From: Candidatus Binatia bacterium | GTDB taxonomy: Bacteria; Patescibacteriota; Patescibacteriia; SG8-24 | NCBI GenBank assembly: GCA_035495855.1 | Contig: DATJFD010000076.1 | Coordinates: 7,185-71,184 of the forward strand | Direction of reading: 5' to 3' | DNA: 64,000 bases | Part shown: one piece after another, positions 7,596-42,926 of the stretch | How positions within the stretch are numbered: position 1 is the stretch's first letter | Layout of the letters: each line of letters opens with the position of its first letter | The notes under the pieces: model-generated | Seen by the model: the letters and a program-made list of their open reading frames with translations, nothing else | Database searches by the model: none | Told to the model about the DNA's origin: nothing | Program-made: the position numbers and the translations under genes

Positions 7596-7602
7596 CGGCC
7601 TT

Positions 7603-8337: not shown

Positions 8338-8445
8338 ACCCTCCGCAGCACCTCATATCCGCGTCGCAGTAAAGCCGGAGAGGTGCTATTATTTATGGGT
8401 CGGAAGCCCAAACCTTTGGACCGCCCTGAACACCCCGATCGGCTT

Positions 8446-9585: not shown

Positions 9586-9586
9586 T

Positions 9587-10801: not shown

Positions 10802-10805
10802 GCCT

Positions 10806-12299: not shown

Positions 12300-12312
12300 G
12301 CCGTCCCCGGAT

Positions 12313-16130: not shown

Positions 16131-16203
16131 CGTTTTCCGTTTTCCGTTTACCGTTTTCAGCGCGGTCCGAAAACCAAAAACGGTAAACGGAAAACGGAAA
16201 ACC
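16131..16203. repeat. heptamer-periodic inverted repeat (CGTTTTC word family), near-perfect hairpin
   Basis: Left arm CGTTTTC CGTTTTC CGTTTAC CGTTTTC (16131-16158). Right arm AAAAACG GTAAACG GAAAACG GAAAACC (to 16203) is complementary at about 26 of 28 positions. It abuts the recG stop (TAG, 16203-16205). Confidence 0.8.
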
Positions 16204-18296: not shown

Positions 18297-18297
18297 C

Positions 18298-18368
18298 AAA
18301 AAAGTGGAAAAGCGGGAAAGCGCGAGAGCGGGTGGCCGCTCTACCGCTCTTCCACTTTTCCACTTTGT
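18298..18368. repeat. 8-nt-periodic inverted repeat (AAAGTGG/AAAGCGG word family)
   Basis: Left arm AAAAGTGG AAAAGCGG GAAAGCGC GAGAGCGG. Right arm CCGCTCTACCGCTCTTCCACTTTTCCACTTT. Lies between the tRNA-Arg 3' end and the recG start. Confidence 0.65.
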
Positions 18369-20788: not shown

Positions 20789-20790
20789 TA

Positions 20791-20830: not shown

Positions 20831-20838
20831 GATGCCGA

Positions 20839-20995: not shown

Positions 20996-21029
20996 AGAAA
21001 CCGAACAAATAGGCTATGATACGAAGCAT

Positions 21030-21163: not shown

Positions 21164-21907
21164 TCATACGGGACGGTTCTTTTGACCGCTGAGCAGCGTC
21201 ACCGCCCGGACGCTCACCGCGCCGGCCGCCCTAAGGGCCGCGGCGCAGGCCGACAAGGTCGCTCCGGTCGTCACCACGTCGTCGATGAGCACGAAGGACC
21301 GGCCGGCCGCCTGCACGGAAGCGCGCACGCTCCCCTGCGCGTTCTTTGCCCGGGCCGCGTCATCCGCGAGCGCGGCCTGCGCCGACCAGCGGAAGCGCCT
21401 CCGGAGGACGCCCGGGGCCGCCGGCGCGCCGGTCACGCCCCGGAACGCCTCGGCCAGGAGCGCCGCCTGGTCGAAGCCGCGATAGGCCTCCCGGAAAGGG
21501 TGCATCGGCACGGGCATGACCGCGGCCGGGCCGGCGAACGCGTCGAACGCGTGCCTGTGCCGACGGACGAAGGCCTCGAAATGGCGGAGCAGCGCCTCCC
21601 CGGCCTCGTCGACCCGTTCGTACTTCCAAAGACGCACCAGCTCTCGCAAAGCGGGGCGGGCGTACGGCGCCGCCGAGGCGATGCCGTCGAGCGGCGAAGC
21701 CGCGCGGCATTTCGGGCGGCCGCACTGCGAACCCAGCGGCGAGCGGGTCCCGCAGCCCGGACAAACAAAGATCCCCTCCAGGGGGACCAGTTCGGCCGCG
21801 GCGCAGCCTTCGCAGAGCACTTTTCCTTCGGCGCCGCAGGAGCGGCAGGAGTGCGGGAACGCGGCCCGGGCGAGAAGGCTCGCGGCCTCCCGTCCGGTCC
21901 GGATCAT
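21164..21907 (-). CDS. comF: ComF family protein (phosphoribosyltransferase-fold competence protein)
   Basis: Start at MIRTGREAAS, in an ATGA overlap with the upstream stop. N-terminal Cys4 zinc finger (CRSCG...CEGC...CPGCG...C). C-terminal PRTase motif FVLIDDVVTTGATL. Confidence 0.8.
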   Translation of the reverse strand: MIRTGREAASLLARAAFPHSCRSCGAEGKVLCEGCAAAELVPLEGIFVCPGCGTRSPLGSQCGRPKCRAASPLDGIASAAPYARPALRELVRLWKYERVDEAGEALLRHFEAFVRRHRHAFDAFAGPAAVMPVPMHPFREAYRGFDQAALLAEAFRGVTGAPAAPGVLRRRFRWSAQAALADDAARAKNAQGSVRASVQAAGRSFVLIDDVVTTGATLSACAAALRAAGAVSVRAVTLLSGQKNRPV

Positions 21908-22521
21908 CGCGGTTGCCAGGTCGCGGTGTTCACCTTCCATGCATCGCCGGCCTTCACGAATTCGAGCTTCAGGTCCTGGTAATACACCACCGCGGCGCCT
22001 CCTGTCGAGCCCGTCTCGCGGCGCTGGGTCTTCACGGTCACGCTGGCCGTCCCCGCCGCCTGGTCATAGGCCGTGATGTCGACGCTGAGCGCCCTGGTGG
22101 TCGTGCCGAAGAAGTTCGCGGCCGGAGGCTTGGCGCGCTGCTCGGCGACGTAGGAATCGGCCCAGGCCTTGAGCGCCGGGGTCATGTAGAATTCCGCGTC
22201 GACGATGTTCTGGTAGTTTCCCTCGGTCGAGAAGCTGCCGAAAAGCTCCGCGAAGGACTTGGCCGTCGCGCGGAGATTGTTGCGCTCGTCCGCCTTCTTC
22301 GGCGGCGGCGCGGGGGCGGGCGCAGGCGCGGTCGTGTTGGTGTTGCCGGTGCCCACGGAGTAGTTGACCCCCAGGCCCGCACGGTTCACGATCACGCCGT
22401 TCTGATTGAGCTCGTCCGGCAGCAGCGGCGCGGACCGCGGCCGCAGCAAGAGCAGCCAGCCCAGGAGCAGGAGCAGCAGGATGACGACGACGGCGATGAT
22501 GATCTTGGTGCGGCGGGACAT
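21904..22521 (-). CDS. membrane-anchored protein, possible VirB8/PrgL-like component
   Basis: N-terminal TM helix (KIIIAVVVILLLLLLGWLLLL), a Pro/Ala linker, and an alpha+beta C-domain of about 120 aa (AKSFAELFGSFS...AWADSYV...SVTVKTQR...YYQDLKLEFVKAGDAWKV) reminiscent of NTF2-like folds. Sits immediately downstream of virB4. The functional call is inference from position and architecture. Confidence 0.45.
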   Translation of the reverse strand: MSRRTKIIIAVVVILLLLLLGWLLLLRPRSAPLLPDELNQNGVIVNRAGLGVNYSVGTGNTNTTAPAPAPAPPPKKADERNNLRATAKSFAELFGSFSTEGNYQNIVDAEFYMTPALKAWADSYVAEQRAKPPAANFFGTTTRALSVDITAYDQAAGTASVTVKTQRRETGSTGGAAVVYYQDLKLEFVKAGDAWKVNTATWQPR

Positions 22522-22527
22522 GGCGGT

Positions 22528-24426
22528 CTATTTCTTCTGGCCTTCCGCGAGCGACGCCTCGTACTCCTTCTTGGCCGCTTCGATCTCGAGCAGCTGCTGC
22601 GGGTTGGTGGTGACGACCTGGTCCTCGGCGTACGACGCGACCACCTTCACCGCCGCGTGCTTGTTGCCCGCGAAGAAGATGCCCTCGCCGACGCCGCACT
22701 CGAGCAGCAGGTACTTCTCGCCCTCGGTCAGGAGGAAGGTCTTGGCGATGTTGTCGATGGCGGCCGGCGACTGCTTGAGCAGCATCTGCATGGCCGAGTT
22801 GGTGACGATGGCCTGCCCGTAGGTGTTGCGGAGGAAGTCGTTGACGTCCTGCGTGATGGTCGTGACGCCGAGATAGTATTTGCGGCAGCGTTTCACCAGC
22901 GCGAAGATGAACTTCGCCGAGTCCTCGTTCTGCATGAGCCACCAGGCTTCGTCGATGACGAGGATGCGCTTCTTGCGCTCGGAGCGGACCACGTTCCAGA
23001 TGTAGTTGACGATGGCGTAGATGGCGAGCGGCCGGAGCTCGTCCTCGAGGTCGCGGACGGAGAAGGTCACGAGGATGTTCTTCATCGTCACGGTCGACGG
23101 CGAGTTGAACAGGCCGGCGAACGTGCCCTCGGTGAACTTCTTGAGGCGGATGACGAGGTCCTTCGTCCCCTCCATGCCCTCAAGCACCTCGACGAAGTCC
23201 TGCATGATCGGCGGCTCCGCCGTGGCGAGGTCGGCGTCCGGCGTGATGTCCTTCTTGGCGTAGGTCTCGAGCAGCGCGCGGTCGAGGATGGAGTCCTCCT
23301 GCGGGGTGACGCTCTGCAGCATGATGCGCAGCAGGCCCTTCACGGTGATGACGGCGCTGCGGATGATGTCCTCGGTGGTGATCTGCTCGCCGACGGCGCG
23401 CGGCAGGTCGAACGGGTTGATCTTCGCGTCCGACGCGAGGGAGATGTTGATGTACGTCCCGCCGACCGCGTCGGACAGGTGCTTGTACTCCATTTCAGGG
23501 TCGATGACGATGACCTCCACGCCCATCATGAGCGAGCGGAGGATCTCCAGCTTGACGGTGTAGGATTTGCCGGCGCCCGAGGTGGCGAACACGATATAGT
23601 TCGCGTTCTGCATCGAGAAGCGGTCGAACAGCACGAGGCTGTTGTTGTGGCGGTTGATGCCGAAAAGGATGCCGTTGTCGGAGGTGAGGTCGGCGGAGAT
23701 GAACGGGAACGACGACGCCACCGGGCTCGAGTTCATGTTGAACGTGATCATGAGCTCGTCGTTGCCCTGGGGGATCGTCGAATTGAAGCCCTGCTCGGCC
23801 TGGTAGAAGACGCGCTTGGTGTAGATGAGCTTGCCGCCGAAGAGCGCTTCGACGTCCTCCGTCTGCTTGTCGAGCTCCTTCTTGTCGGCGCCGTACACGG
23901 TGACGTAGAGCGCGAACTGGAAGAAATGCTCGGTCCCCTGCGAGAGCGAGTCGCGCAGGTCTTCGATGTCGCGGAGCGCGGTCTCCCGGATCGGGTCGCG
24001 CGGCGCGCCCTTCTCGGCGTCGGAGAGGATCTGCGCCTCGAGCGTACCGACCTTCTTCTTGAGCTGCTTCAGGATGACGTCAGGCTTCACCGGATAGAAG
24101 AACATGGCCACGTCGAGCGGGTGGTTCATGTTCACGATCGGCGCGAACCAGCCGAGCGAGATGTAGCGCGGGTACGTGACGACGAAGACCGTCCTCACGA
24201 ACGTCTCGTTGAGGACGAGGTAGGTCGGCTCGACCTTCAGGCCGGCGGGCGCGATGATGTCCTTGATGGAGACGACGCCCTTGCGGTAGATGCGCTCCTC
24301 TTCGAGGAGCTCGCGCTCCTTGGCGATCTGCTCCTGCTCCTGGGCGCCCTTGCCCGGCGGCGCGGCCTTCTTGGGAGGCGCGCCCGCTGCCGGCGACGGC
24401 GTGAATTGTCCGGGCTGGAATGCCAT
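22528..24426 (-). CDS. virB4: VirB4/TrbE-family type IV secretion ATPase, central + ATPase part
   Basis: 632 aa. Walker A FATSGAGKSYT, Walker B ILVIDEAWWLM, and a TQDVNDF motif. The preceding segment (YPRYISLGWFAPIVNMNHPLDVAMFFYP) is typical of the VirB4 middle domain. Confidence 0.9.
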   Translation of the reverse strand: MAFQPGQFTPSPAAGAPPKKAAPPGKGAQEQEQIAKERELLEEERIYRKGVVSIKDIIAPAGLKVEPTYLVLNETFVRTVFVVTYPRYISLGWFAPIVNMNHPLDVAMFFYPVKPDVILKQLKKKVGTLEAQILSDAEKGAPRDPIRETALRDIEDLRDSLSQGTEHFFQFALYVTVYGADKKELDKQTEDVEALFGGKLIYTKRVFYQAEQGFNSTIPQGNDELMITFNMNSSPVASSFPFISADLTSDNGILFGINRHNNSLVLFDRFSMQNANYIVFATSGAGKSYTVKLEILRSLMMGVEVIVIDPEMEYKHLSDAVGGTYINISLASDAKINPFDLPRAVGEQITTEDIIRSAVITVKGLLRIMLQSVTPQEDSILDRALLETYAKKDITPDADLATAEPPIMQDFVEVLEGMEGTKDLVIRLKKFTEGTFAGLFNSPSTVTMKNILVTFSVRDLEDELRPLAIYAIVNYIWNVVRSERKKRILVIDEAWWLMQNEDSAKFIFALVKRCRKYYLGVTTITQDVNDFLRNTYGQAIVTNSAMQMLLKQSPAAIDNIAKTFLLTEGEKYLLLECGVGEGIFFAGNKHAAVKVVASYAEDQVVTTNPQQLLEIEAAKKEYEASLAEGQKK

Positions 24427-24432
24427 AGGTCG

Positions 24433-25137
24433 TCAAACGGTGGTGATCTCTTCCTGCACGCGCAGCTTCGCCGAATCCTGCATCTTCTGGCTGTCGTACA
24501 CCTCCGGGTTGTAGACGCGGTAGAACAGCTCGATGAGGCTCTGGGTGTCGAGCTGCACCGCCTTGAGGCCCATGCTGTTGAGGTTGCCGATGATGTGCTC
24601 GACGCGCACCTGGAGGTCGTTCTTGCGCTGCCGGAACCGCTCCTCGGCGAGCTTGACGAACAGGGCCGGCGTGAAGGCCTCCGACATCCGGGCCACGAAG
24701 CCCTTCTGCTTGTCCGACAGCGGGTTGTACGGGACGATCACGAAGAACGACTTCTGCATGATCTGCCCGAGGGTGACGAGCTCGGTCACGAAGTTCCTGT
24801 AGTCCGCGATCTGGATGCGGAGCAGCTCGTTGGTCTGGTTCTTCTCCGATTCCTTCAGGCGCTCGATGTAGTTGTCGATGTTGAGCTTGCGCGACTGGAT
24901 GACGACCTGCAGCGGGAACTCCAGCGCGTTGAGGAACTGCACGTACGCGGCGATGATGGCGTTCTGCTCGTCCTCCGACTTCAGCGCGAAGTTGATGCTC
25001 GCGACGATGAGCACGGCGCGCAGGGTGCCGTCCTTCATGATCACGACGTCCTCCTTGATCTCGTTGATGTCCAAATAGCGCTGGGTCGCGGGACCCGGCT
25101 TGCTGCCGGCGAGTTTCGGGGATTGCATTTCGGGCAT
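24433..25137 (-). CDS. virB4: VirB4 N-terminal domain protein (separate ORF, in frame with the ATPase ORF)
   Basis: 234 aa. YLDINEIKEDVVIMKDGTLRAVLIVASINFALKSEDEQNAIIAAYVQFLNALEFPLQVVIQSRKLNIDNYI matches the N-terminal pattern of Gram-positive-type VirB4 (PrgJ/TraE-like). The stop TGA (24433-24435) is in frame with the downstream ATG (24426), only 2 codons apart. Confidence 0.75.
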   Translation of the reverse strand: MPEMQSPKLAGSKPGPATQRYLDINEIKEDVVIMKDGTLRAVLIVASINFALKSEDEQNAIIAAYVQFLNALEFPLQVVIQSRKLNIDNYIERLKESEKNQTNELLRIQIADYRNFVTELVTLGQIMQKSFFVIVPYNPLSDKQKGFVARMSEAFTPALFVKLAEERFRQRKNDLQVRVEHIIGNLNSMGLKAVQLDTQSLIELFYRVYNPEVYDSQKMQDSAKLRVQEEITTV

Positions 25138-25206
25138 AGCTGCGAGCTTCGAGCTGCGAGCTTCGAGCTTGTGTCGTCACAAGCTCCAGGCTCACGGCTC
25201 GAGGCT
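25138..25206. repeat. heptamer-periodic inverted repeat (AGCTKCG word family)
   Basis: Left arm AGCTGCG AGCTTCG AGCTGCG AGCTTCG AGCTTGT G. Right arm CACAAGCTCCAGGCTCACGGCTCGAGGCT. It fills the gap between the prgI-like stop and the virB4-N start exactly. Confidence 0.65.
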
Positions 25207-25630
25207 AATCCTCGGGGTTGTAGACTCCGCCGGTGTTCACGACGAGCGAGAGCTCGGTGAGCTTGGTCGCGGCGAGCGGCTCCTTCCGGATGCGCGCGGG
25301 CGGCGGAGGCGGCGGCGGCTTCTTGATGATGTCCATGAGCTCGCCGTCGGTATACTCCTTGTTCCAGATGCGCAGGCCGGGCCGTCGGAACGTCTGGATC
25401 ATGTTCAGCAGGAAGAAGTGGAACGGCTGGCCGTTGACCCGGAAGAAGGCGAAGATGCCGCCGATGACGAAGGTCGTGAGGCCGACGAGGAGGAAGAGGC
25501 CGAAATCCGCGAGCTTGTACTCGATGAACATGATCAGCGTCGTGACGAGCAGGATCAGGAACTGCCGCGTCGTGAGGGGGCCGATGATCTTGTCCTCTAC
25601 GTCGATGAATTGGGGTACGACGTACCGCAT
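25205..25630 (-). CDS. PrgI-family (VirB3-like) T4SS membrane protein
   Basis: Start re-picked at MRYVVPQFIDVEDKIIGPLTTRQFLILL (ATG 25630). Two TM helices. The YxVPxxxxxEDKIxGxLTxRQF opening is characteristic of PrgI/VirB3-like proteins encoded just upstream of VirB4. A poly-Pro tract follows. Confidence 0.7.
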   Translation of the reverse strand: MRYVVPQFIDVEDKIIGPLTTRQFLILLVTTLIMFIEYKLADFGLFLLVGLTTFVIGGIFAFFRVNGQPFHFFLLNMIQTFRRPGLRIWNKEYTDGELMDIIKKPPPPPPPARIRKEPLAATKLTELSLVVNTGGVYNPED

Positions 25631-25684
25631 GGGCGCATTATACCATAGAAGGAGCAGGATTGTCCCCAAGTGAGCCAAAAAACG

Positions 25685-27058
25685 TCAGCCGAACCGCAAT
25701 TTCCGGTTAAGCTCCATGACGGAGTCGAACTCGGCCTTGGAAAGGTAGGGGGCGGCCTTGCTCTCAAGCTCGGCAATGACCTCGGTGACCGGCTTCCCCT
25801 CGAGGCTTTTGCGGAGGATGTCGAGGTACAGCTTATTGACCTCGCTGTCCTGCCAGGCGCGGATGCCCTGCGTTTTGACGTCGAAGGACTGTTCCTCGAG
25901 CAGGTCGATCTTGTCCTTGAGCTTGAGCGTTGCCTCGCGGGGATCCTTGGAGAGCCTCCGGAAGTCCTTGATGGTCATGGAGCGCAGCTCTTCTACGGGG
26001 CCGGTGAGCTTGGGCGAGAATTTCACGTCGGACATGACGGGCTGGGCCTGGGGAGAGGCCTGCGCCGGCTGCTGGGCCGAGGGCTGCGGCGCAGGGCGGA
26101 CGGCGGGCTGGGCTGGCTGCGCCGGCGCGGGGCCGGACGGAGACGCGGGCGGCGGTTCGACGACGACGGTCGTCGGCGTCGGCTTGCCTGAAGAATCGAG
26201 GCCCACCACGGGGACGACCTTCGGTTCGCTGGGCGCCGCATGGACCGGTTCCCGCGGCGGGGCGGCGGCGACGCCGGAAGCGGCGACGCCGGAACGCTGC
26301 AGCAGGTCGCTGAACGTCTGCTCCCTGTTGGCCTGGTCCTTCTTGTCGGCGGTGTCCTGTCCGGTCAGCACCTTCTCGGTCTGCTCGGCGACGTACTTGG
26401 CCTTCTCGCCCGCCTTCTCGCCCGCGAGGCCCGAGTGGAAGTCGCGGTTCTTGCGCTGGAGCTCGTCCATCACGCGATCCGCGTCGGCGTCGCTCATGCC
26501 CATGCCGCCGCTCTGCACCGGCATCGTGAACTTCGATTTGGTCTCCAGTCCGTCACGAAGGTCGCGGAAGAACAGGGAGACGAGCATCCTGAAACGGCGT
26601 TTGACGTCCTCGTCGGGCATGGGCACGCCGCTGGCAGCCACGGCCTCGTCGACGATGGCGTCAAGATGCGTGACCTCGGACTTCTTTTCCGGCTGGACGT
26701 CCTTCTTGGCGATGATGGCTTCGATCTTCTTGAGATCGGCCGCGTCCTTGCCCGCGTCCTGGACGTAGTCGTCCTTGGTGACCTTCGCGAGGGAGACTTC
26801 CGGCTGGGAGGCCGCGACAGGCTCCGCCTTCTCGACCAGGGTAAGGGCGGGCGGCCGCACCGAGGGCGCGGACCCTTCTACCGCGGCGGCGGGGCCGGTC
26901 GGCAGGTTCGGCGGCGGCGCCGCTTCTTTTTTGGCGCCGGAATCGACGAAATCAAGCCCCTTCACGAGGAGCTTCTTGCCGGACTTGTCGACGACGGGGA
27001 TGTCCTCGTCGAGTAGGTCGAGCCAAGGCGTTGGAGGGGTTCCGGGAGCATCAGCCAT
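25685..27058 (-). CDS. hypothetical soluble Pro/Ala-rich protein sharing a domain with the upstream gene
   Basis: 457 aa with no TM segment. Contains DVKRRFRMLVSLFFRDLRDGLETKSKFTMPVQSGGMGMSDADADRVMDELQRK (motif at nt 26468-26509), a long P/A/Q linker, and a conserved-looking C-terminal about 110 aa. Confidence 0.6.
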   Translation of the reverse strand: MADAPGTPPTPWLDLLDEDIPVVDKSGKKLLVKGLDFVDSGAKKEAAPPPNLPTGPAAAVEGSAPSVRPPALTLVEKAEPVAASQPEVSLAKVTKDDYVQDAGKDAADLKKIEAIIAKKDVQPEKKSEVTHLDAIVDEAVAASGVPMPDEDVKRRFRMLVSLFFRDLRDGLETKSKFTMPVQSGGMGMSDADADRVMDELQRKNRDFHSGLAGEKAGEKAKYVAEQTEKVLTGQDTADKKDQANREQTFSDLLQRSGVAASGVAAAPPREPVHAAPSEPKVVPVVGLDSSGKPTPTTVVVEPPPASPSGPAPAQPAQPAVRPAPQPSAQQPAQASPQAQPVMSDVKFSPKLTGPVEELRSMTIKDFRRLSKDPREATLKLKDKIDLLEEQSFDVKTQGIRAWQDSEVNKLYLDILRKSLEGKPVTEVIAELESKAAPYLSKAEFDSVMELNRKLRFG

Positions 27059-27073
27059 ACGCGGGAGGGACGT

Positions 27074-28390: not shown

Positions 28391-28402
28391 AGTGCGTGTC
28401 GT

Positions 28403-31108: not shown

Positions 31109-31302
31109 GTGCTCGGTCACGACATGGCGGAGTTCTTTTTTGGCAGGGTGTGTACAACTCCCTGCTGACTCCGTCTTCCGCCTTATGATACCACGAACGG
31201 CGCTGCCGACGAAGCGGCGGGGATAAGCCCGCGCGACCCATGAAAAATACCGCCTCTCCCTGGCTGGGAAAGGCGGTATTTTCGCTAGATCAAGCGGATT
31301 TT

Positions 31303-34300: not shown

Positions 34301-37300
34301 CATTCGCAGTCGTTGTTGAGCGAGCAGACGTTCGATCCGCTGAACTGGGCCTTCTTGTTCAGCGCCTGGCCGTTCGTGCAGTCGAACCCGCGGCAGTTCC
34401 CCGTCCTCTCAAGGACGGATTCCGCGTAAGGAGAGTCTTCCTCCGGATAGGCGCGGCACTGCGCCTGGTTGATGGCATCGGCCGGGTTCAGTATGCCGCC
34501 GCCGTACGGGTAGAAGCACTTGTGCTCGAGGCAGGTGCCGTTGGCGGCCTGGCCGGTCTTGGAACACTGGTTCGTGGCGATGCACTTGGCGATGCGGTTG
34601 GTGGCCGTGCGGCAATTATCGTCGTTGCCGACCGTGCAGGTCCCGCCGCCGCCAGGAGGCGTGCTGGGGCTCTCGTCGCCCGTGCAATCGGTGTCGTCCT
34701 TGCAGACGTAGCCGGGGTCGAGCAGGATGGCGTACCGCGTGGTGGCGAAGAAGCTCTTGGCGCAATAACCGACGCCGCAATCGGAGTTCGCGTCGCACGA
34801 CGTGCCGAGACGGTCGCCGAGGCAGACGCCGGTGTACATCTTGCAATAGTCGGTCGGGGCTCCGCCGCCGGTGGTGCACTTGAGGCTGTCCACGCACTCG
34901 CCGCGCGCGGTCGCCGTGCCGCCCGTGTTCACGCAGCGTCCCTTGACGATGCTGAACGGCGAGAGGTACTGGGCCGGGTAGCGGCCCGGGATCGAGTAAC
35001 CCGAGTACTCGAGGCCCGAGAAGGTCACGTCGCGGGCGGTGTAGTCCCTGTCCGTCAGCACCGTCTTCGGCGGATCGAAGGTATGCGCGCACTCGAAGGC
35101 GCTGGCCGTCTGGCCGCGGATCTCGTCGCAGAGGCTGAAGGCCGAGCAGACCGGCTTGATCTTGTTCTGCTGCTCGTCATAGACCGTGTCGTAGCTCGTG
35201 CAGGTGTACCACTGCGCGCACTCGCGGTCCGGCCGCACCTTGATGATGACGTTCGCGTCGTTCTTGGTGATGCCGGCCTCGGACTTGAGGATGTGGATGT
35301 TCTGCGTGGCCGGGTTCGGCGTGCAGGTCTCGCCGCCGGGGCAGTCACCGTTCACGTCGCAGAACTTCGAGGTCGTGATGGAACAATGCGACACGCCGGC
35401 GCACTGCTCGCCGATGGCCTTGTTGCAATCCTTGTTGGGATTGGCCGTGTCCGACGTGGAACAGCCGTTGCCGTAGCGCTTGCGGCCGGTGCAATAGTTG
35501 GTCGCTCCCGGGCAGCCGAGCTCGGGGTCCTCGGTGTCCTGCTTGCAGAACTTCTCGGGCGTGGCTGAACAGACGCCTTCGGGGATGCTGAAGCAGCGCT
35601 GTTCGCAATACGGGCTGCGCGGATCGCTGTCGCAGTTGACCGGCGGCACGAAGCCGCTCGAGGCCTCGGTCACGCTGCGCAGATAGGACGAAGCGGCGGA
35701 GTAGAGGTTCTGGGTCTTGCTGGTCTGCTTGAAGAGCACGCAGCCCTGCTTGAGGCTCGCTTTGCCGGAGCAGGTCTTGAGGTCCAGCTTCGTGTTCACG
35801 ATGTAGTAGTACGGTTCCCCGGCGGGATGCGCGTTGCTGGTCGAGACCGGATCGACGAACTCCTCGCAGCGGTCGTACTTGGCCTCGCAGACGCCGACCC
35901 AGCCCTGGTAGCCGCAAGTCGTGTTGTCCTTGTACACCTTGCAGGCCGGCACCGGATCGGGCGCGACGAAGCACTGGCAGCCGTCGGCCTTGCAGCGTCC
36001 GGCGTCGATGATCTTGCAGGAGGACGAGCCGTTCGGAATGACGCAGGTCGAGCCGTTGCTGGTGCAGCCGCAACCGGCCGGGTTGGAGCAGAACGAGCCG
36101 GAGCAGGTCGTGGTGATGTTCGGCAGCGTGCAGACGCGGTCCGCGTTCTTGTACAGCGCGTAGTAGTCGCCCGACTGGAGCAGTTCCGGATAGCACGGGA
36201 AGAGCGCGCCGGTCGAGCTGCGGCGGAAGAAGCCGGAGACCGTCTGGCCGTTCACGATGGCGTTGTCCTTATACTCGCAGACCTTGTCGACGGGGTCCCT
36301 GAAGTAGTACGTGCCGTCGGAAGCGGTGTACTCCTCGCAGTTCAGCGTCTTCGACGTGCAGAGCGTCTGCTCGTACTTGGACGGGTCGTCCTTGATGGCG
36401 ATGGCGTTCCATTTGTCGATCACGCCGAGTTCGAACGAGACCTTGCAGCCTTTCTCGCCGTTCGCAACGGGGCAGGTGCCGCCATTGACCGGGCCGCAGA
36501 CGCAGCCGGTGGCGCTGTTGCAGACGCCGTTGACGACCGTGCCCGAAACGGTGAACCCGGGACCGAGATCGCACTGGCCTTCGAAGCCGTAGTGCGGAAG
36601 GCCCATGGCGCGGCAGCCGACCTGGTCGGCGGTGCACTGACCCGCCGAGTTGTCGACGAGGTACACACGGCGGTCAGCCTCGATATTGGCGCGGTCGGGA
36701 TTCTCGTCGGGGCGGGTCGAATCGTCCCAGGCGTCATACTTGAAGCGGCAATCGGTCTCGCCGACCGCGACGCGGCAGACGTCGGCCAGCATCTGGGGAG
36801 CCGTGGACATCGCGGCGGGATGGCGGACGTCGTAGTTGCAGACGCAGGCGGTGCCGGCATCGGCCGCGACGGGGATGTCGCAGGTCGTGCCGTTGTTCGG
36901 GATGAGGCAGGAGCCCTCCGGCTTGGTGCAGGAGCAACCGCCGCCCACGGTGCAGTGGTCCCCCGGGCCCGTGTAATTACAGGCGACGGACCCGCACTTG
37001 CGCGGCGTGACGCCGTCCGTCTCGTACAGGCGGCAGACCGCGTTGAAAGACTCCTCGAAGGGGTTCTGCGGCGTGTTCTGCTGGGCCGAGAAGGCGCGGC
37101 AGCCGACGGCCTTATCGCGGCACAGATTGGTGAACGACCGCAGATAGGCTTTCTCGTTCTTGCTGGTGGTGTATTCCCTGCAGCCGAGCATCTCCTGGGG
37201 CGAAGCGATGCCGTCCGCGGTCTGATCGCAGGAGGCCGGCGTCGTCCACGAATCGCGGACCACATAGACGCTGTCCTGGACCGCCTTGAGATCGACGTTG

Positions 37301-40300
37301 TCGACGAAGACATCGGACGTGCCGACGGCCTCGAAGTTGAGCTTCACCGAGGTCTGGCCCCACGGGGTCTGGCCGGGCGTGGGATTGCAGGCCGCCCCGC
37401 CGCCGCACTCGAGGTTCGTGGCGCAGGCCCTGGTGGCGTCATTGCTGCACCGTCCGGATTCGATGATGACCGGACCGAGCGTGTACTGCTTCCATTCCGA
37501 CGAGAGGGTGATCTTCGGAGCGGTGGTGCGCGGCGGCACGGAAGCTTCGTCGTCGTCGGCGAAGTTCGAGCTTCGCGGCGGAGCGGACGTGGCGGTCGTG
37601 AACGAGCAGGTGCCGTCGGGGCAGTTCGAACCGGTCGTGCAGGCCAGGCCGTTGTTGGCGCCGCCCTTGCAGGTGCCCGGCGAGACGCCCGGCACGCCTG
37701 AGGCGGCCGAAATGGTGCAGGAGGTCGCGACGCCGTTGTTCGGGACCATGCAGGTCAGGCCGGTGCTCGTCGAGCAGGGGCAGCCTTCGGTCGAGGCCAC
37801 GGGGCAAGCCGTATCGATGTTGCAGGTGATCGTCGCGCCGCCGTCGCGGAAGCCGACGTTCAGCGAGCCGGTGCCGCGCGCCCAGAAGGTGAGGATATAG
37901 GCGCTTCTCGGCTGGACCAGGCCGCCGATCTCGCGGCGCGCCAGACGCGTGCCGCCCGTGCCGATCTTCATGGAATGCCCGCCGACGGTGACGGATTCGC
38001 CGGACTGGGTGAGGACCCCGAGGGTCACGTCGCCGCTGCCCTTCCAATTGCCCGGCCAATCCTCGAAATCGTCATGGAGCAGCGACTGGACGTTGGTGGA
38101 AGCGTTGCCTTTGTACGCGCGGCAGCCGTTCTGTTCCTTCGGGCATACGTTGCTCGCGCCGGCGTCGGCGAAGTAGACGCACTGACCCTTCGCGGAATCC
38201 CAGCGGCCGTTGGATTTCTCGCAGTCCGCCTGCGTCGAGGTGGTGATGCGGTACTGAACGCAGGACGAGGACGCGATGATGGTCTTCGACAGCTGGCGGT
38301 AATGGCGGTTGCCGAGCGCATCGTAGAACTCGCGGCAATCGAAGTCGCCTCCGTCGATGGCCGAGCGGTTGCAGTAGCCCGCCGTATCGGAAGAGCCGTT
38401 GCCGATGGCCTGGCTCGCGCAGGCGGTCGCCTGGGCGTTCAGCCTGGTGCACGGCGCGGGACCCGCGTTCGCGCAGCCGGCATCCGCGCAGATGTCGTTC
38501 GCAAGGCCGGCGGTGATGTCGGCGGGCGAGCCGTTCACGACCGGAGCGGCCGTCGTGTTGGTGGTGTCGGTGGTGTTCTTGAGGTTCCAGACGAGCAGCT
38601 GGTAGCCGGTCGTGTCGGAGCCCTCCCAGCTATAGTAGACGCCCTTGGTCGCGTCATCAGGCTTGATGCAAAGACGGAGATGCGAGTAATACTCGACCTT
38701 CTCGGTCTCGAGGTTGGTGAACTCCGAGCATCCGACCTCGTTCTCCGTGCAGGAGGTCGCGGTCGTCGGGATGAAATAGACCGGGAACTTCACGGTGTCG
38801 AAGTCGGACTCTTCCTGTTTGAAGACGTCATACCCGGCGCATTCCTGCGGGCAGCGGTCCTGCGGGCCGGCGATGCCGGGAACCGTGGCGTCGCCGTTCG
38901 TGGGCGTGTAGGCGTCGCAGCCGACCTCGTTCTCGCGGCACACGCCGGCGAACGCGTTGCATTCCGGCCGGTCGCCCTCATCGCCGGTGCAGCCCAGGAA
39001 ATCCGGCGGGACCTTGATGGACGCGGTTTCGCTCGTGTTCGCGCCTCCGTAGGCGGAATGGTAGGAGGATCCGCCGCCTTCCTCGAACTGGACCGCGTCG
39101 GCGTAGACGGTGCCGCTCGTGGTGTAGAGCCAGAGGGTCGCGTGCGAAACGTCCTTGTTGTCGATGACGAACGTGCAGGAAGCGCGCAGGCCCTTCTCGG
39201 TCGCGGCCTTGGTGCCGGACGCGCGCATGTTGATCTCGCCGGAGGCCGCGCCGCCGGAAGTGCCGTCGACGGTGGCGGCGCAGTTCACCGTGGGCGTGGT
39301 CCCTTCCGCCTCGCCCGAGTAGCCGGTCGTGGTGACGACGTCGTCCTGCGCGAGCGTGACGGTCGCGCCGTTCGCGTCCCGGAAGGTCAGGCCGATGCCG
39401 CCGCTGACGTCGTTGCCCGAGTCAGGGATGAAGGTGGCGGAAACGGTGTAGGTGGTCTTCCTTCTCACGGGCAGGCCCTGCTGCGCCACGTTCTCCGTGA
39501 CCGAGCACTTCTGCTGTCCCTTGATGACCTTGCAGGTGTCGTTCAGGACGTTGCCGGCCGTGCCGTACGTGCAGGGGCAGCCGAGATCGGCGATGCAGGT
39601 GCCGGCATTGATGGTGGCGTTCGTGACGAGCGGCAGCGTGCAGGCCGCGACGGTGCCCAGCGTGCCCGGCGGATTGAAACCCGTCGCCAGGACCGGAAGG
39701 CGCATGGCGTTCGCGCCATCCACGGCCTTGCTCCCGTCCTTGCTCAGGAAACCCTTGTTGGCGGACGGAACCTCGCCGAACGGGGTCCAGCTGGTCGCGT
39801 GATCGGGCGTGCCGTCGTTGTCCCCGTCCTCGACGTCCTCGAAGCTCGGGTTGCGGACGAGGTTGAGGGCGTCGCCCGCGTCCAGCCGCACGAGCGAGGA
39901 ACAGCCGTTGCTCGTGGCGCTGCAGGTCTGGGCGTTCTTGTTGAAGAATCGCGACGGGTCGATCTGCCAGTCATCGCCCTCGGCCTTGGCGCCGGTGAGC
40001 GACGAGCAGGAGCGCTGGCCCTTCTCGACCTCGCAGGTCAGGCCGGCGGTGCAGGAGCAGGAAGCGGTGTTGCACGGGTAGGGCTGGCGGCAGACGGCGC
40101 CGTTGGGCGCGGTGCACGACGTGTTGTTCTTCGTGATGGTGCAGGATCCCGTGTTGAACGCCGTGCCCGAGTTCGGCGGGACCGTGCAGGTGCAGGACTT
40201 GATCGGGTCCGAAGCGTCGACGGGATGCGTACAGACCGACGAAAGACTGCAGGTCACGGTGCTCAAATTGAGCGCGTACTGGCGGCAGCCGGCGTTGTCG

Positions 40301-42090
40301 GCGTTGCAGACGCCGTGGTCGATGGTGTTGAGGACGTAGTTCTTGATCTCGCCGGTGCGGGCCTTGAGCGTGCGGCACGTGTTGTAGGCAGCAGGGCAGG
40401 AATCGCCGTTGAAGCGCCAGACGTTCCGCTCGCGCGCGCAGTAGCCCCAGCCGCCGGTGCAGTTGCCGTTGTCGTCCTGCTTGAGGCAGGTCTGCGGATC
40501 CACGCACTGCTCGGCGCGGCTCGCGATCTCGCTCGACAGCGGGACGGGACCGAAGGCCATCGCGCGGCATTGCGTCGGCGGGATCTTCAGCACCCAGTCG
40601 GGGTCGATGAGATGGCACCACGGGTGGGCGGCGTCGATGGTCCCCTGGTCGTTGCAGTTATTGAAGCCGGCCATCACCTCGCGGAGCTTGGTGTTGGGAC
40701 CGGCCTTGCGCGCGGCGATCTCCCAGCCGATCGGCAGGATGCGGGCCGCGCGGAGCTTCTTGATGTTGCTCTCGCAGTACGCGTAGGTATAGCAGAAAGG
40801 ATCCTGGTCCTTGACCGGATCGGAGGACGCCACGAACGGCCAGTCGCCGTGGAGCATGTTCTTGTCGACGGCCTCCCTGACGGTCACCGGCGTGACGTCG
40901 GCCACGCGGACGGCGTTCGCGAACTGCTGATCGATGACGCAATTGTTCGGGCCGCGCTCCGCGCCGGGACAGACGCTGAACTCGAGCAGGGGGTCGATGA
41001 TGCCGGTATCCTTCGGCTGCGCGGCGGTGAACCGCGGCGCCAAGGCTTCGGTCGCGCCGGTGGTCCCCGGCGGCTGCAGCAGGCCTTCGGGGTTCAGGAT
41101 GAGGTCCGGCTGGAGGGCGATGAGCTCCTCCGTCGACATGAGGCCGTTGATGAGCTTGTTGAGCAGGCGCGAAATGAGGGTCATCGCGAACGTCTGCACG
41201 GCGTTCACGACGATGGAGATGACCGCCTTGGAGGCGATCTGGCCGGCGGCGTAGGAAGCCGAATACTGCTGCGGGTTGTCCTGCTGCATCTTCTTCATGC
41301 GCTGGAACTCGTCGTGCGTCACCGACGACGGCGCCTTGGCGCGGCCCGAAACGGGATCACGGACGTCGGAGAACCCGCCGCCCGCGGAAGCGTCCATGAT
41401 GCGTTTCATGACGTCGGCCCTCTTGGCCTCTTCCTTCACTTCATAGAGGCCGCTCTGCGCGCCGAGCGCGACCGACAGCGGGGCTTGTCCCCTCTCGAAG
41501 GTCGGCTTGAGGCCCTTGAGCACCTCGCCGCTCGTGACCGAATCCTTGAAGTTCGACCAGTTGCTCGCGACCGCGTTGAAGTCGCACTTCGGCGGCGGCG
41601 GCTTGATCTCGTCGAGGGCGCCCAGCTGGATCTTGAGGGAGAACTTGATGCCCGGGTTGCAAAGGTCGAAACCGAGCTTGGTGAAACCGCCTTGCGTGGA
41701 AAGGGTGCCGATGGCCTCGCCGATGGCGCCCTGCCATGCCTGCTTGAAGCCGTCTTCGAACGCCTTGCTGTTCCAGCAGACGACCTGGCCGGGGCAGTCG
41801 GACGTGAGGGCGACGGCCGCGGTGTAGGCGAGCTGCGAGGTGAAATAGTTGACGCCGTTGACGACGGCGGTGACGGCCGCCTCGACGAACGCGTCCTTGA
41901 TGGTGGTCCAGACGTTGGTGGTCGTGGTCTGGACGCTGGTGATGGGGTCGGTGTATTGCGCGTTGGCCTGGCGGGGCGACCCGAAGAGGAGGGTCGACGA
42001 GGCCAGGAAGAAGCCGAACAGGAAAAGCAGGAACGTCGCCATCGCCTTCCTCCCCGAGCGTCCGGGGTCCTTGCTGTAGAAAATCCCCAT
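31303..42090 (-). CDS. giant (3595 aa) secreted or surface Cys-rich protein with CBM-like and PKD-like domains
   Basis: Single uninterrupted ORF. Signal or anchor segment MATFLLFLFGFFLASSTLLFGSPRQANA. Very high Cys content with recurring Cys motifs. Two NPSFED/DDFEDW-type jelly-roll (CBM4/9-like) regions (nt about 39079-39861 and 37276-38082). A DFGDGT PKD-like box near the C-terminus (nt about 31711-31983). Confidence 0.85.
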   Translation of the reverse strand: MGIFYSKDPGRSGRKAMATFLLFLFGFFLASSTLLFGSPRQANAQYTDPITSVQTTTTNVWTTIKDAFVEAAVTAVVNGVNYFTSQLAYTAAVALTSDCPGQVVCWNSKAFEDGFKQAWQGAIGEAIGTLSTQGGFTKLGFDLCNPGIKFSLKIQLGALDEIKPPPPKCDFNAVASNWSNFKDSVTSGEVLKGLKPTFERGQAPLSVALGAQSGLYEVKEEAKRADVMKRIMDASAGGGFSDVRDPVSGRAKAPSSVTHDEFQRMKKMQQDNPQQYSASYAAGQIASKAVISIVVNAVQTFAMTLISRLLNKLINGLMSTEELIALQPDLILNPEGLLQPPGTTGATEALAPRFTAAQPKDTGIIDPLLEFSVCPGAERGPNNCVIDQQFANAVRVADVTPVTVREAVDKNMLHGDWPFVASSDPVKDQDPFCYTYAYCESNIKKLRAARILPIGWEIAARKAGPNTKLREVMAGFNNCNDQGTIDAAHPWCHLIDPDWVLKIPPTQCRAMAFGPVPLSSEIASRAEQCVDPQTCLKQDDNGNCTGGWGYCARERNVWRFNGDSCPAAYNTCRTLKARTGEIKNYVLNTIDHGVCNADNAGCRQYALNLSTVTCSLSSVCTHPVDASDPIKSCTCTVPPNSGTAFNTGSCTITKNNTSCTAPNGAVCRQPYPCNTASCSCTAGLTCEVEKGQRSCSSLTGAKAEGDDWQIDPSRFFNKNAQTCSATSNGCSSLVRLDAGDALNLVRNPSFEDVEDGDNDGTPDHATSWTPFGEVPSANKGFLSKDGSKAVDGANAMRLPVLATGFNPPGTLGTVAACTLPLVTNATINAGTCIADLGCPCTYGTAGNVLNDTCKVIKGQQKCSVTENVAQQGLPVRRKTTYTVSATFIPDSGNDVSGGIGLTFRDANGATVTLAQDDVVTTTGYSGEAEGTTPTVNCAATVDGTSGGAASGEINMRASGTKAATEKGLRASCTFVIDNKDVSHATLWLYTTSGTVYADAVQFEEGGGSSYHSAYGGANTSETASIKVPPDFLGCTGDEGDRPECNAFAGVCRENEVGCDAYTPTNGDATVPGIAGPQDRCPQECAGYDVFKQEESDFDTVKFPVYFIPTTATSCTENEVGCSEFTNLETEKVEYYSHLRLCIKPDDATKGVYYSWEGSDTTGYQLLVWNLKNTTDTTNTTAAPVVNGSPADITAGLANDICADAGCANAGPAPCTRLNAQATACASQAIGNGSSDTAGYCNRSAIDGGDFDCREFYDALGNRHYRQLSKTIIASSSCVQYRITTSTQADCEKSNGRWDSAKGQCVYFADAGASNVCPKEQNGCRAYKGNASTNVQSLLHDDFEDWPGNWKGSGDVTLGVLTQSGESVTVGGHSMKIGTGGTRLARREIGGLVQPRSAYILTFWARGTGSLNVGFRDGGATITCNIDTACPVASTEGCPCSTSTGLTCMVPNNGVATSCTISAASGVPGVSPGTCKGGANNGLACTTGSNCPDGTCSFTTATSAPPRSSNFADDDEASVPPRTTAPKITLSSEWKQYTLGPVIIESGRCSNDATRACATNLECGGGAACNPTPGQTPWGQTSVKLNFEAVGTSDVFVDNVDLKAVQDSVYVVRDSWTTPASCDQTADGIASPQEMLGCREYTTSKNEKAYLRSFTNLCRDKAVGCRAFSAQQNTPQNPFEESFNAVCRLYETDGVTPRKCGSVACNYTGPGDHCTVGGGCSCTKPEGSCLIPNNGTTCDIPVAADAGTACVCNYDVRHPAAMSTAPQMLADVCRVAVGETDCRFKYDAWDDSTRPDENPDRANIEADRRVYLVDNSAGQCTADQVGCRAMGLPHYGFEGQCDLGPGFTVSGTVVNGVCNSATGCVCGPVNGGTCPVANGEKGCKVSFELGVIDKWNAIAIKDDPSKYEQTLCTSKTLNCEEYTASDGTYYFRDPVDKVCEYKDNAIVNGQTVSGFFRRSSTGALFPCYPELLQSGDYYALYKNADRVCTLPNITTTCSGSFCSNPAGCGCTSNGSTCVIPNGSSSCKIIDAGRCKADGCQCFVAPDPVPACKVYKDNTTCGYQGWVGVCEAKYDRCEEFVDPVSTSNAHPAGEPYYYIVNTKLDLKTCSGKASLKQGCVLFKQTSKTQNLYSAASSYLRSVTEASSGFVPPVNCDSDPRSPYCEQRCFSIPEGVCSATPEKFCKQDTEDPELGCPGATNYCTGRKRYGNGCSTSDTANPNKDCNKAIGEQCAGVSHCSITTSKFCDVNGDCPGGETCTPNPATQNIHILKSEAGITKNDANVIIKVRPDRECAQWYTCTSYDTVYDEQQNKIKPVCSAFSLCDEIRGQTASAFECAHTFDPPKTVLTDRDYTARDVTFSGLEYSGYSIPGRYPAQYLSPFSIVKGRCVNTGGTATARGECVDSLKCTTGGGAPTDYCKMYTGVCLGDRLGTSCDANSDCGVGYCAKSFFATTRYAILLDPGYVCKDDTDCTGDESPSTPPGGGGTCTVGNDDNCRTATNRIAKCIATNQCSKTGQAANGTCLEHKCFYPYGGGILNPADAINQAQCRAYPEEDSPYAESVLERTGNCRGFDCTNGQALNKKAQFSGSNVCSLNNDCECNYQRYDYGKTGVSHFYGLESGQMIKPWTTNTDIDPNVGVCQGGSLDGKPCRAIGHPENKPNKDCTNPDDATDAGTCQKLTKLTHVNGWSGFCMDPDKSILVNGRPDQFNCNVWLPVDQLAGSPDNFNQFVEAGFTTDQQSLLYCAAAEGAKHSGTYEFPLHLESGGKSQPYSICVTDNQCAGRSLATCTGLKNNSSAGFSDMSTSNTDACAVVGGKCVDKVATDDGVAFTNADNPPAQPNATMTGDGSWNTDFNNKTQVPANYGACDRAAFKAADDNCTAAIILGGIFGGFAGAAAGAGLCYSGIAGWCDGLATCHSRALPGGNDCTLAGSYFDTSWQDATVMEDCTMRGQGIKENDLVAVRIQFPDESNGGVNGRLYLYPGHWKSTFEFDDNSSLGTAAGPGRNQRVGDMAIGDYGDSTSPCAHILSGGVDNEDECESIEDRGGDDGMHNCIGVEAVFDSNHNLDKIRTVLCHNESTFSHHISASSYAMLREACTDVVQTHNASNPVQNIAWTDRLWKAQNGNAGAVGLPAAFEYNHHTTRPNANPADLKPFGPVTPSLGAVNYNGQTTLDVRWPLPVFKSEGGSPFTVLRREGLQLWTFCGYPTATGVNSPYDPPMGEGSDCWSHVAADPHLPDVAHPQDPDSGTYNANAQRTAAGYPYACLGQCDMAGMSGKTRDDGYTLLSRMFVKSFVHFNYDPTSPTGLSLTAPVYHLDGAGYDKRLLYMNVGNAPKILTVATGNCSQAADGLCQEGAEGITVDLPNCGGCTDYQGRVTASIKYYAFADREHMPIRRRIVDFGDGTSILETPGFYKNHRGCPATGTDNAPAGCGPEDQQCNTIPGGETAVPFGLTPQSCESRYFSDRHTYTCNPQKLATLPACTDPGHPYPCRDGDDCVFKPRVQVLDNWGMCNGSCPGGASGESGDFCFNSLGITSASDPINLTPAASTPSLTCAGSTCTVNGFTGNRNECWNLKDTHYDIRQGPSKLQPWTEGAAVKVRS

Positions 42091-42116
42091 CGTCGTTTTC
42101 TTAAAAAGATTGACGG

Positions 42117-42926
42117 CTACGGCGCGTTGACGTTCGTTCCTCCGGCCGGCGCATTCGTGTTGGTCGCGGGTTCGTTGGTGTTCACATCCGGCACGGCGAT
42201 CTCCGACAGCGTGTCGGTGACCAGCTTGCGGAGGGTCGCGTCATCGGCTTTCTGGAGCGCCTGCGCCGGTATGCCCAGCTTGCCCAGGAAGATCCGGAGA
42301 TCGGCCGCCGACATCGTTTCCAATCCGTCCTTGATCTTCTGCGGCGTCAGCGTGGCGACGGGCCCGAAGGTCTCTTCGATGACCGCCATGACCTTGGCCT
42401 CGGCGTCGCTGCTCGTCCCCGTCGTCGGCGCGCCTGCCGCGCCCGTGGCCGGGTTCGAGCTTCCGGTGTTCCCTCCTCCGGTCGTGCCGCCGGTCTCCTG
42501 CTGGGCTGCCGCGAAGATCTTGGCTTGCCGGCAGGTTCGTCCTTTCGGGCAGTTCGGGTCCGTCTCGGCGGCGACCTCGGCGCCGTCGTTGATGCCGTCC
42601 GAGTCCGAATCCTCGAGGAAGGGGCTCGTGCGGAAGACGTAGAGCTCGTCGTAATCAGTCAGGCCGTCGCCGTCCGTGTCCTGCGTGCGCAATTTCTGCG
42701 TCCTCTCCTTCTCGATCTGGTCCGCGGTCTTGAACGTGAACTGCGTGTTGCGCTTGAACGGCAGCACGATCGCTTTGTTCAAGCGAAACAGACCCAGGAC
42801 GATCGTCGAAAGACCAATAACGATAAAAACCCCGAGACTCAACTTCTGATGTGAAGAAAGGGAATCCCAGTTGGTCACATGGTTCGTCGACAGTATAACA
42901 TGCGCGTTCTTCGAGCGTCCACGCAC
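42117..42926 (-). CDS. membrane-anchored protein with thrombospondin-type-3-like Ca-binding repeats
   Basis: GTG start at 42926; the start is uncertain. TM helix LSLGVFIVIGLSTIVLGLF. DTDGDGLTDYDE and DSDSDGINDGAE (D.D.DG..D..E) motifs at nt about 42576-42680. Gly/Thr-rich linker and a helical C-terminus. Confidence 0.55.
   Translation of the reverse strand: MRGRSKNAHVILSTNHVTNWDSLSSHQKLSLGVFIVIGLSTIVLGLFRLNKAIVLPFKRNTQFTFKTADQIEKERTQKLRTQDTDGDGLTDYDELYVFRTSPFLEDSDSDGINDGAEVAAETDPNCPKGRTCRQAKIFAAAQQETGGTTGGGNTGSSNPATGAAGAPTTGTSSDAEAKVMAVIEETFGPVATLTPQKIKDGLETMSAADLRIFLGKLGIPAQALQKADDATLRKLVTDTLSEIAVPDVNTNEPATNTNAPAGGTNVNAP

Follow-up and report, generated by a model that had tools for sequence, protein, structure and literature searches.

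The stretch of DNA analysed here, called the window throughout, is 64 kb of contig DATJFD010000076.1 (assembly GCA_035495855.1, positions 7,185 to 71,184, filed under Candidatus Binatia bacterium). It carries a minus-strand cluster that combines genes of a type IV secretion system (T4SS) with the gene for a very large, cysteine-rich secreted protein, hereafter the giant protein. The host is a high-GC patescibacterium, and GC stays between 61 and 71% across the whole window, with no compositional island. An original prediction, made from this sequence alone, had described ten co-directional minus-strand genes around the giant gene; all ten open reading frames (ORFs) are present at 21164-42926, tightly spaced and in the same direction. 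Frame-specific GC at third codon positions singles out these ten genes, the high third-position GC being typical of coding sequence. In the order of transcription the cluster reads:

42117..42926, minus strand: TSP3-repeat membrane protein of 269 aa (TSP3_bac, E 7e-10), one transmembrane (TM) segment at residues 27-55
31303..42090, minus strand: giant Cys-rich secreted protein of 3595 aa, with 206 Cys and a Sec signal peptide
31228..31298, minus strand: terminator-like hairpin, directly past the stop codon of the giant gene
28403..31108, minus strand: extended VirB6-like polytopic protein, tentatively assigned by TM prediction, fold search and TrbL matches in relatives
27074..28390, minus strand: acidic cytoplasmic protein of 438 aa without Cys, family unassigned
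25685..27058, minus strand: cytoplasmic protein of 457 aa without Cys, family unassigned, just upstream of PrgI
25205..25678, minus strand: PrgI/VirB3-like protein with two TM segments, likely start at 25630 (Pfam PrgI)
24433..25137, minus strand: TrsD-like protein of 234 aa, resembling the N-terminal domain of VirB4
22528..24426, minus strand: VirB4 ATPase of 632 aa, CD1110/MPF-FATA type (NCBIfam conju_CD1110)
21904..22521, minus strand: bitopic PrgL/VirB8-like protein of 205 aa, tentatively assigned by its TM segment and a C-domain profile match
21164..21940, minus strand: ComF-family protein with a phosphoribosyltransferase fold, likely start at 21907 (comF, Pribosyltran)

The giant protein, 5.7% of which is cysteine, gave no Pfam or NCBIfam match above cutoff, and a PDB sequence search with it was empty or spurious. 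Besides the Sec signal peptide, it comprises a helical region at the N-terminus, an alpha/beta domain and two beta-sandwiches resembling carbohydrate-binding module (CBM) families 4 and 9. There are also eight mini-modules of the CxC kind and, at the C-terminus, a PKD-like motif, whose signature VDFGDG...HTY...DNWG can be read directly in the protein. The mini-modules, each about 25 aa long and of the form CxC...C...C (e.g. GCPCSTSTGLTCMVPNNGVATSC), lie between conserved blocks in residues 633-2059, and these inserts are mostly missing from low-GC relatives. Throughout the family, conserved blocks alternate with variable Cys-rich inserts.

This family is large. An exhaustive HMMER search of representatives with residues 1-1200 as the query placed no fewer than 1,316 clusters (50% identity) in the family, 1,059 of them with E<=1e-30; narrower queries gave no matches despite obvious relatives (residues 380-620) or four matches (the N-terminal 900 aa). 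The 148 best new representatives have a median length of 3,050 aa and a Cys content of 2.9-6.2%. Among the 122 that are near full length (>=2,500 aa), 115 begin with a hydrophobic signal segment and 104 conserve the C-terminal DNWG motif, and a Sec signal peptide ending in AxA was found in all 24 full-length giant genes that were extracted. About 45 Cys are invariant across 16 members that share only 25-49% identity. Pfam recognises CBM_4_9 in 11 of 16 family sequences (best E 1.3e-14) and, in a single sequence, a dockerin. In an AlphaFold2 model of the window protein, the beta-sandwich at about residues 740-1000 (predicted local distance difference test, pLDDT, 75-91) was matched by Foldseek to CBM16, CBM22 and CBM4 with a probability of 1.0 and a TM-score of 0.64. 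The giant protein carries CBM4/9-type modules, and sugar binding is predicted from this fold. No LPXTG motif and no PrgB adhesin domain was found in it, nor any toxin or enzyme domain (Pfam, NCBIfam). A match of the N-terminus to DUF4141 (Bacteroides TraI) was dropped, since it was weak and lay in the signal-peptide region of a single relative. Matches to the giant N-terminus and to the VirB6-like protein came solely from proteins of Patescibacteria/Parcubacteria metagenome-assembled genomes (MAGs).

Synteny of the giant gene with the VirB genes was followed in a scan that took a single genome for each GTDB species. At least 561 species have relatives of the VirB6-like gene, the best 80 being Uhrbacteria, Falkowbacteria and 'Patescibacteria group' MAGs; these lineages belong to the GTDB class ABY1. 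Fifty-seven species loci anchored on VirB6 had at least 8 kb of upstream sequence, and in 45 of them a giant homologue (2,000 to >3,250 aa, Cys 3.1-6.1%) lies upstream of VirB6 on the same strand, so that the synteny of the giant with VirB6 and VirB4 held in 45 of the 57 related genomes. The two genes are directly adjacent in about half; otherwise 1-7 kb of co-directional genes stand between them. Downstream, where genes were scored in 53 related loci, the 457-aa protein lies next to PrgI in 44, PrgI and the TrsD-like protein are each found in 46 and the VirB8-like protein in 43, with VirB4 within 43-46. ComF follows in at least 17 (a tblastn count and hence a lower bound), and the 438-aa protein was detected in just 14. 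Upstream, the gene directly before the giant is TSP3 in 18/20 loci from genomes and 66/66 from metagenomes, and KsgA precedes the giant in 57 of those 66. Close relatives keep the whole stretch of GroES/EL, RF1, Sua5, MFS, KsgA, TSP3 and giant genes, and the nearest giant and VirB6 proteins bear the consecutive NCBI locus tags VL500_00335 and VL500_00340. The spread of the VirB6-like gene over no fewer than 561 species and the conserved gene order both point to a chromosomal, vertically inherited locus. The original prediction would have fallen had the giant and VirB genes proved non-syntenic in related genomes; in the lineage of the window the linkage of giant and T4SS holds, though it is not universal. 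Some public MAG records with this patescibacterial locus carry the label Acutalibacteraceae, 'Candidatus Eisenbacteria' or 'uncultured Gammaproteobacteria' (L009, JBAIWZ010000085.1; P0009/P0125, HTK04012.1; many CAZ* records), and these contigs are probably mis-binned or mislabelled.

That the ten genes form a single operon, as had first been supposed, is doubtful in view of the terminator-like hairpin between the giant gene and VirB6. This hairpin has an 18-bp inner stem with an A-tract before it and a U-tract after it, a folding free energy of -47.2 kcal/mol and a z-score of -7.7, and 0/200 shuffled sequences were as stable. At least eight relatives (L004, L006, L008, L010, L012, L017, L026, L043) have comparable hairpins, different in sequence, at this position. 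Judged by its sequence, the hairpin resembles a bidirectional terminator. A scan for consensus promoters and terminators showed no excess over shuffled sequence, and the hairpin escaped that scan through a loop-size limit. The TSP3-giant pair is probably a transcription unit of its own, which would make two units in the ten genes.

The remaining genes include the core of a T4SS. VirB4 scores above the curated cutoff of NCBIfam conju_CD1110 (330.3 bits vs 325), matches P-loop_TraG at 2.9e-25 and is 70-91% identical to VirB4 of Patescibacteria MAGs; its match to CedB is weak (2e-13). PrgI exceeds its Pfam cutoff (35.9 bits vs 27). The TrsD-like protein matches the N-terminus of NCBIfam VirB4_plasma (2.5e-11) and TrsD (5.4e-6), both below curated cutoffs. 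What had been taken for a VirB4 in two ORFs is really a conserved TrsD-like gene followed by VirB4. In the window, an in-frame TGA and then two codons separate the TrsD-like ORF from the VirB4 ATG (24424-24435), but among 51 related loci the spacing ranges from 5 to 245 nt and all three relative frames are used. Since the frames vary among relatives, this is not a broken gene, and read-through or a pseudogene at the TGA was rejected on the same grounds. The in-frame layout in the window appears coincidental; the TrsD-like gene and VirB4 are an ancestral two-gene arrangement, neither split nor recoded.

The VirB6-like protein (869-901 aa, depending on a start at 31012 or 31108) has about seven to eight TM helices. 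The window protein has no Pfam match, and TrbL/VirB6 is matched by 2/27 of its relatives (best E 9e-5). Its AlphaFold2 model (mean pLDDT 77.5) shows an N-terminal helical membrane bundle and a C-terminal alpha-solenoid of about 450 aa with pLDDT >90, for which the best Foldseek matches are armadillo (ARM)/importin-alpha repeats (E 2.6e-4). TrwI/VirB6 of R388 (8rt9_F) was matched with a Foldseek probability of 0.95 but an E of 0.12 and a TM-score of 0.31, and is the sole membrane protein among the 50 Foldseek matches listed for the model. The C-terminal half (28403-29750), an ARM/HEAT-like solenoid, is free of Cys and conserved in length across relatives. With no Cys in about 500 aa, the solenoid probably sits in the cytoplasm, where it could serve as a substrate-docking platform or receptor replacing a coupling protein.

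From VirB6 to ComF the genes are packed with gaps of 6-67 nt. The bitopic 205-aa protein has an N-terminal TM segment, and the single PDB match of its C-domain profile is PrgL of pCF10 (7AED), a weak one (E 0.05). The 438-aa and 457-aa proteins matched no Pfam or NCBIfam family, and a PDB sequence search with the 457-aa protein was likewise empty or spurious; a marginal TAF match of the 438-aa protein (E 2.4e-4, 21.6 bits vs a cutoff of 21) was taken as chance. The two share a 68-aa domain ending GG(L/M)xMSDADA(E/D)RVM (38% identity, E 1e-10) and are soluble cytoplasmic paralogues. ComF matches TIGR00201 comF at 8e-22, below the curated cutoff, as well as Pribosyltran, and its start overlaps the stop of the VirB8-like gene (ATGA), as read from the sequence. 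The locus had been described as being without DNA-processing genes, a description that overlooked both ComF and the adjacent radA and recG. These two and the genes next to them are:

7570..8292, plus strand: DsbA-like membrane-anchored thiol-disulfide oxidoreductase (Thioredoxin_4 4e-25, DSBA 1.9e-15)
8383..14085, plus strand: four VirB2-like pilin-domain proteins of 400-590 aa (PF18895)
14127..15500, plus strand: radA, 457 aa, zinc-finger and Walker A motifs read in the translation
16203..18299, minus strand: recG helicase (RecG_wedge 2e-24 and helicase domains)

The placement of pilin genes on the opposite strand, with radA, recG and tRNA genes between the two loci, agrees with the original prediction. 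All four pilin proteins match T4SS_pilin (PF18895) above cutoff, and in each a signal peptide is combined with a VirB2-like hairpin of two TM segments and a C-terminal domain of 250-450 aa that contains 8-15 Cys. A VanY/M15 D-Ala-D-Ala peptidase (VanY 2.8e-11) is present in the first; the C-terminal domains of the others had no family or PDB match, the PDB sequence search, run for two of the pilin proteins, being empty or spurious. The pilin proteins look like enzymes tethered to pilin domains, and these fusions are possibly the VirB1-type cell-wall cutters whose absence is reported by the published survey discussed below. At two related loci (L073, L078) the T4SS genes are followed directly by pilin genes. 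The DsbA-like gene directly upstream of the array encodes a CPPC motif and a TM segment. Cytoplasmic T4SS proteins of the window hold 0-2 Cys each, compared with 8-206 in the exported proteins, and the position of the DsbA-like gene beside the pilin array fits this heavy use of cysteine; the oxidoreductase may possibly be a folding factor for the Cys-rich exported proteins.

The rest of the window is ordinary chromosome. Pfam scans of about 55 ORFs across the 64 kb found no relaxase, VirD4, VirB11 or integrase, as had been said at the outset, and the oriT-associated genes of MPF-FATA conjugative systems are absent from the locus; comEC was not seen in the window either. Every other assignable ORF is a housekeeping gene: LemA, M48 peptidase, ClpB, the DsbA-like gene, MOSC, KsgA, major facilitator superfamily (MFS), Sua5, epimerase, RF1, GroEL, Wzy, YidC, NusA, bactofilin and histidine kinase. 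There are five tRNA genes, three of them between the pilin array and the operon (tRNA-Arg at 18380-18456 and two tRNA-Ser at 20700-21117) and the others, tRNA-Val and tRNA-Leu, at about 59.6-59.9 kb. On the plus strand, 4580-6313 encodes an extremely Gly/Ala/Lys-rich low-complexity protein of 577 aa that has two hydrophobic segments and repeats of the GKG(A/M)Q type and had no family match. Beside it lies 6326-7537 (plus strand), whose 403-aa product combines an N-terminal TM segment with recurring motifs of the PDGS/WSP type; it has no Pfam match, and its motifs are suggestive of a TolB-like beta-propeller. Cumulative GC skew reaches a minimum at about 14-16 kb, where plus-strand genes on the left meet minus-strand genes on the right. 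Because the coding strand is C-rich on both sides of the minimum, the skew follows the direction of transcription and does not mark a replication origin.

Systems of this kind have been described. In the saccharibacterium Southlakia epibionticum, a T4SS cluster (SEML1_0006-0019) is essential for epibiotic growth by transposon sequencing (Wang 2023, PMC10633639); it is like Gram-positive conjugation systems, includes pilin genes and is without relaxase or coupling proteins (PMC10633639). The supplement of that paper annotates its VirB6 (SEML1_0013) with an ARM-repeat domain and a neighbour as NTF2-like. In the same organism, deletion of comEC leaves viability unaffected while the T4SS is essential. 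A survey of 2,474 patescibacterial virB4 genes (Quinonero-Coronel 2025, PMC12102498) reports an MPF-FATA-related VirB4 adjoining TrsD, along with PrgI, VirB6, VirB2 arrays and KsgA nearby, with VirB8/PrgL homologues almost confined to class ABY1, where comF, recG and radA are also co-located with the T4SS. It counted relaxases near virB4 in 15 cases and found no adhesins with the patescibacterial T4SS (PMC12102498). The role of the apparatus is given as unknown in a 2024 perspective ('completely unknown', in its words) and a 2025 review, which mention effector delivery and DNA import as suggestions.

We are highly confident that the window locus is a member of this published patescibacterial T4SS with the ABY1-type layout: it has an MPF-FATA VirB4, a separate TrsD-like gene, PrgI and a VirB2-like pilin array, with no relaxase or type IV coupling protein (T4CP) in the 64 kb, and the VirB6-like and PrgL/VirB8-like identities of its proteins are consistent with the published assignments. 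The original description of a T4SS-like but non-conjugative chromosomal apparatus is upheld by its derivation from monoderm MPF-FATA systems, its housekeeping context and its uniform GC, and was already in print (PMC10633639, PMC12102498). The TSP3-giant pair is mentioned in neither of these papers; within the papers that could be searched, the giant family and its TSP3 partner are an undescribed part of an otherwise published locus.

On balance we favour, with modest confidence, a role of the TSP3-giant pair as a host-binding partner of the patescibacterial T4SS at the cell surface. Patescibacteria would have inherited the T4SS from monoderm MPF-FATA conjugation machinery, and it would no longer conjugate. 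Its membrane core would consist of the VirB6-like channel protein, PrgI/VirB3, the TrsD-like protein, the VirB4 ATPase and the bitopic PrgL/VirB8-like protein, accompanied by the two paralogous cytoplasmic proteins, and the Sec-exported VirB2-like pilin-domain proteins could supply both a surface filament and, through the one VanY peptidase, cell-wall cutting. Sec would export the giant protein, which about 100 disulfides, and probably Ca2+ through the TSP3 partner, would stabilise. Held at the cell surface with its CBM4/9-type modules displayed, it might bind glycans of the host cell wall, and this docking of the epibiont would position the T4SS for the transfer of macromolecules. The surface location of the giant, its binding to glycans or to the host and its coupling to the T4SS are what we infer from these features, as are the direction and nature of the T4SS substrate. 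Cargo or partner had both been proposed for the giant; a Sec signal in a monoderm cell argues for a partner and against T4SS cargo, while the attachment or contact-dependent function proposed with them is plausible from gene content.

Several observations weigh against a partnership of giant and T4SS, and some of them also favour its strongest rival, namely that the TSP3-giant pair is a general ABY1 surface adhesin or envelope protein that lies near the T4SS by inherited gene order and works independently of it. A strong terminator-like hairpin parts the giant gene from VirB6. The order KsgA-TSP3-giant (57/66 and 66/66) is tighter than the adjacency of giant and VirB6, and VirB6 was found within 4.6 kb past the giant in only 10 of 35 metagenome loci, whose 10-kb flanks end 3-5 kb beyond it. 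In twelve of the 57 loci anchored on VirB6, ordinary genes take the place of a giant gene, none being present within 10 kb; the Saccharibacteria cluster is without such a gene altogether, and Sec export of the giant needs no T4SS. The tie between the two is one of gene order alone, in Patescibacteria genomes that are small and highly syntenic. The properties of the giant protein itself also call for caution: the CBM matches of the window protein, at two sites, are sub-threshold (17 and 13.7 bits vs a cutoff of 25.9), the model of residues 1-1200 is moderate overall (pLDDT 60) and of low confidence outside the beta-sandwich, and no anchor motif or C-terminal hydrophobic anchor is seen on the protein. 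Against mere proximity stands the fact that the two genes are co-directional and linked in 45 of 57 species whose proteins share 30-45% identity and whose GC spans 31-64%, and that about half of the pairs are directly adjacent; persistence across such deep divergence would usually indicate functional coupling. We regard an independent adhesin as possible if rather unlikely.

The other explanations concern what the T4SS does, and what the giant might be to it. The T4SS could be a device for importing DNA or nucleotides, like Helicobacter ComB or archaeal Ced, that feeds ComF, RadA and RecG while the giant holds the host. ComF overlaps the stop of the last T4SS gene and comes after the T4SS genes in 17/53 loci, radA and recG are neighbours, and the association of comF, recG and radA is typical for ABY1 (PMC12102498); there is no relaxase or T4CP in the 64 kb, VirB4 shows the weak match to CedB, and the idea has been raised in the literature. 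However, the S. epibionticum T4SS is essential whereas comEC is dispensable, so its essential role is independent of ComEC competence; comEC is absent from the window here, linkage of ComF was detected in a minority of loci, and radA and recG are ordinary housekeeping genes. We consider an import role unlikely. A bolder combination of the two ideas would see in the TSP3-giant pair the extracellular part still missing from the ABY1-type T4SS: a glycan-binding stalk or docking complex, stabilised by disulfides and calcium, that sits on the extended VirB6, replaces adhesins or VirB5-type tips and, with ComF, RadA and RecG, pulls in host DNA or other macromolecules. This combination is speculative and in our judgement quite unlikely. 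That the giant is an effector or toxin exported in two steps, with Sec acting first and the T4SS second, on the model of pertussis toxin and Ptl, would agree with its Sec signal, its position among T4SS genes and the lack of a T4CP nearby, as in Ptl; in a monoderm cell, however, a Sec-exported protein is already outside, 3,000 aa with about 100 disulfides make an implausible channel substrate, and no toxin or enzyme domain was detected, all of which leaves this explanation very improbable. An ordinary integrative and conjugative element (ICE) whose relaxase, VirD4 and integrase lie beyond the window would explain a VirB4 family typical of conjugative elements, and the window is only 64 kb long. 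Yet the flanks are housekeeping genes (GroEL/ES, RF1, KsgA, NusA, YidC, ClpB, RecG, tRNAs), GC is uniform, the chromosomal neighbourhood is conserved in relatives, and relaxases lie near virB4 in 15 of 2,474 cases (PMC12102498). A layout inherited across hundreds of species argues against an ICE, which we consider hardly credible.

The giant protein is a concrete candidate for the host-contact component of this system in ABY1, a major class. Its CBM modules offer a way to probe host specificity by experiment, through the glycans that they would bind, and the overlap with ComF keeps the DNA-import hypothesis testable. Should the giant gene be merely a syntenic neighbour, the locus would be another example of the published system.

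Comparison with known systems places the locus more closely. Like H. pylori ComB and archaeal Ced, it is based on VirB4 and has neither relaxase nor coupling protein nearby, and its link to ComF and recombination genes is suggestive; ComB has the outer-membrane parts VirB7/9/10 and Ced has CedA, unlike the window locus. Bordetella Ptl is likewise a T4SS without a T4CP that acts together with Sec-exported proteins, but it belongs to a diderm and has a periplasmic intermediate, a full VirB set and one defined toxin. Large surface proteins encoded together with a T4SS mediate cell-cell contact in other systems, such as PrgB of pCF10 and TraN of the F plasmid; TraN has many conserved cysteines, and F-like systems encode disulfide isomerases of their own. 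The giant is 3-6x larger than these proteins, has CBM4/9-like modules and shows no detected sequence or domain similarity to them, so the analogy is functional only. MPF-FATA conjugation systems (pCF10 Prg/Pcf; CTn2/CD1110) share with the window a CD1110-type VirB4, PrgI and a cell-wall hydrolase function and, by the tentative assignments above, PrgL-like and VirB6-like proteins. The window differs from them in being chromosomally and vertically inherited, without relaxase, T4CP (PcfC/VirD4), oriT-associated genes or integrase, and in having VirB2-like pilins, which Gram-positive systems lack. The closest likeness is to the patescibacterial T4SS, including that of S. epibionticum, which has the same TrsD and MPF-FATA VirB4, PrgI/VirB3 and pilin array and, by the tentative assignments above, the same extended ARM-like VirB6 and NTF2/VirB8-like protein, is chromosomal with no relaxase or T4CP nearby and KsgA close, and in ABY1 has the same comF/recG/radA neighbourhood. 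Unlike the published systems, the window encodes its pilins as fusion proteins of 400-590 aa, and it adds, upstream of VirB6, the TSP3 gene and a gene of about 3,000 aa for a CBM-bearing, Cys-rich protein.

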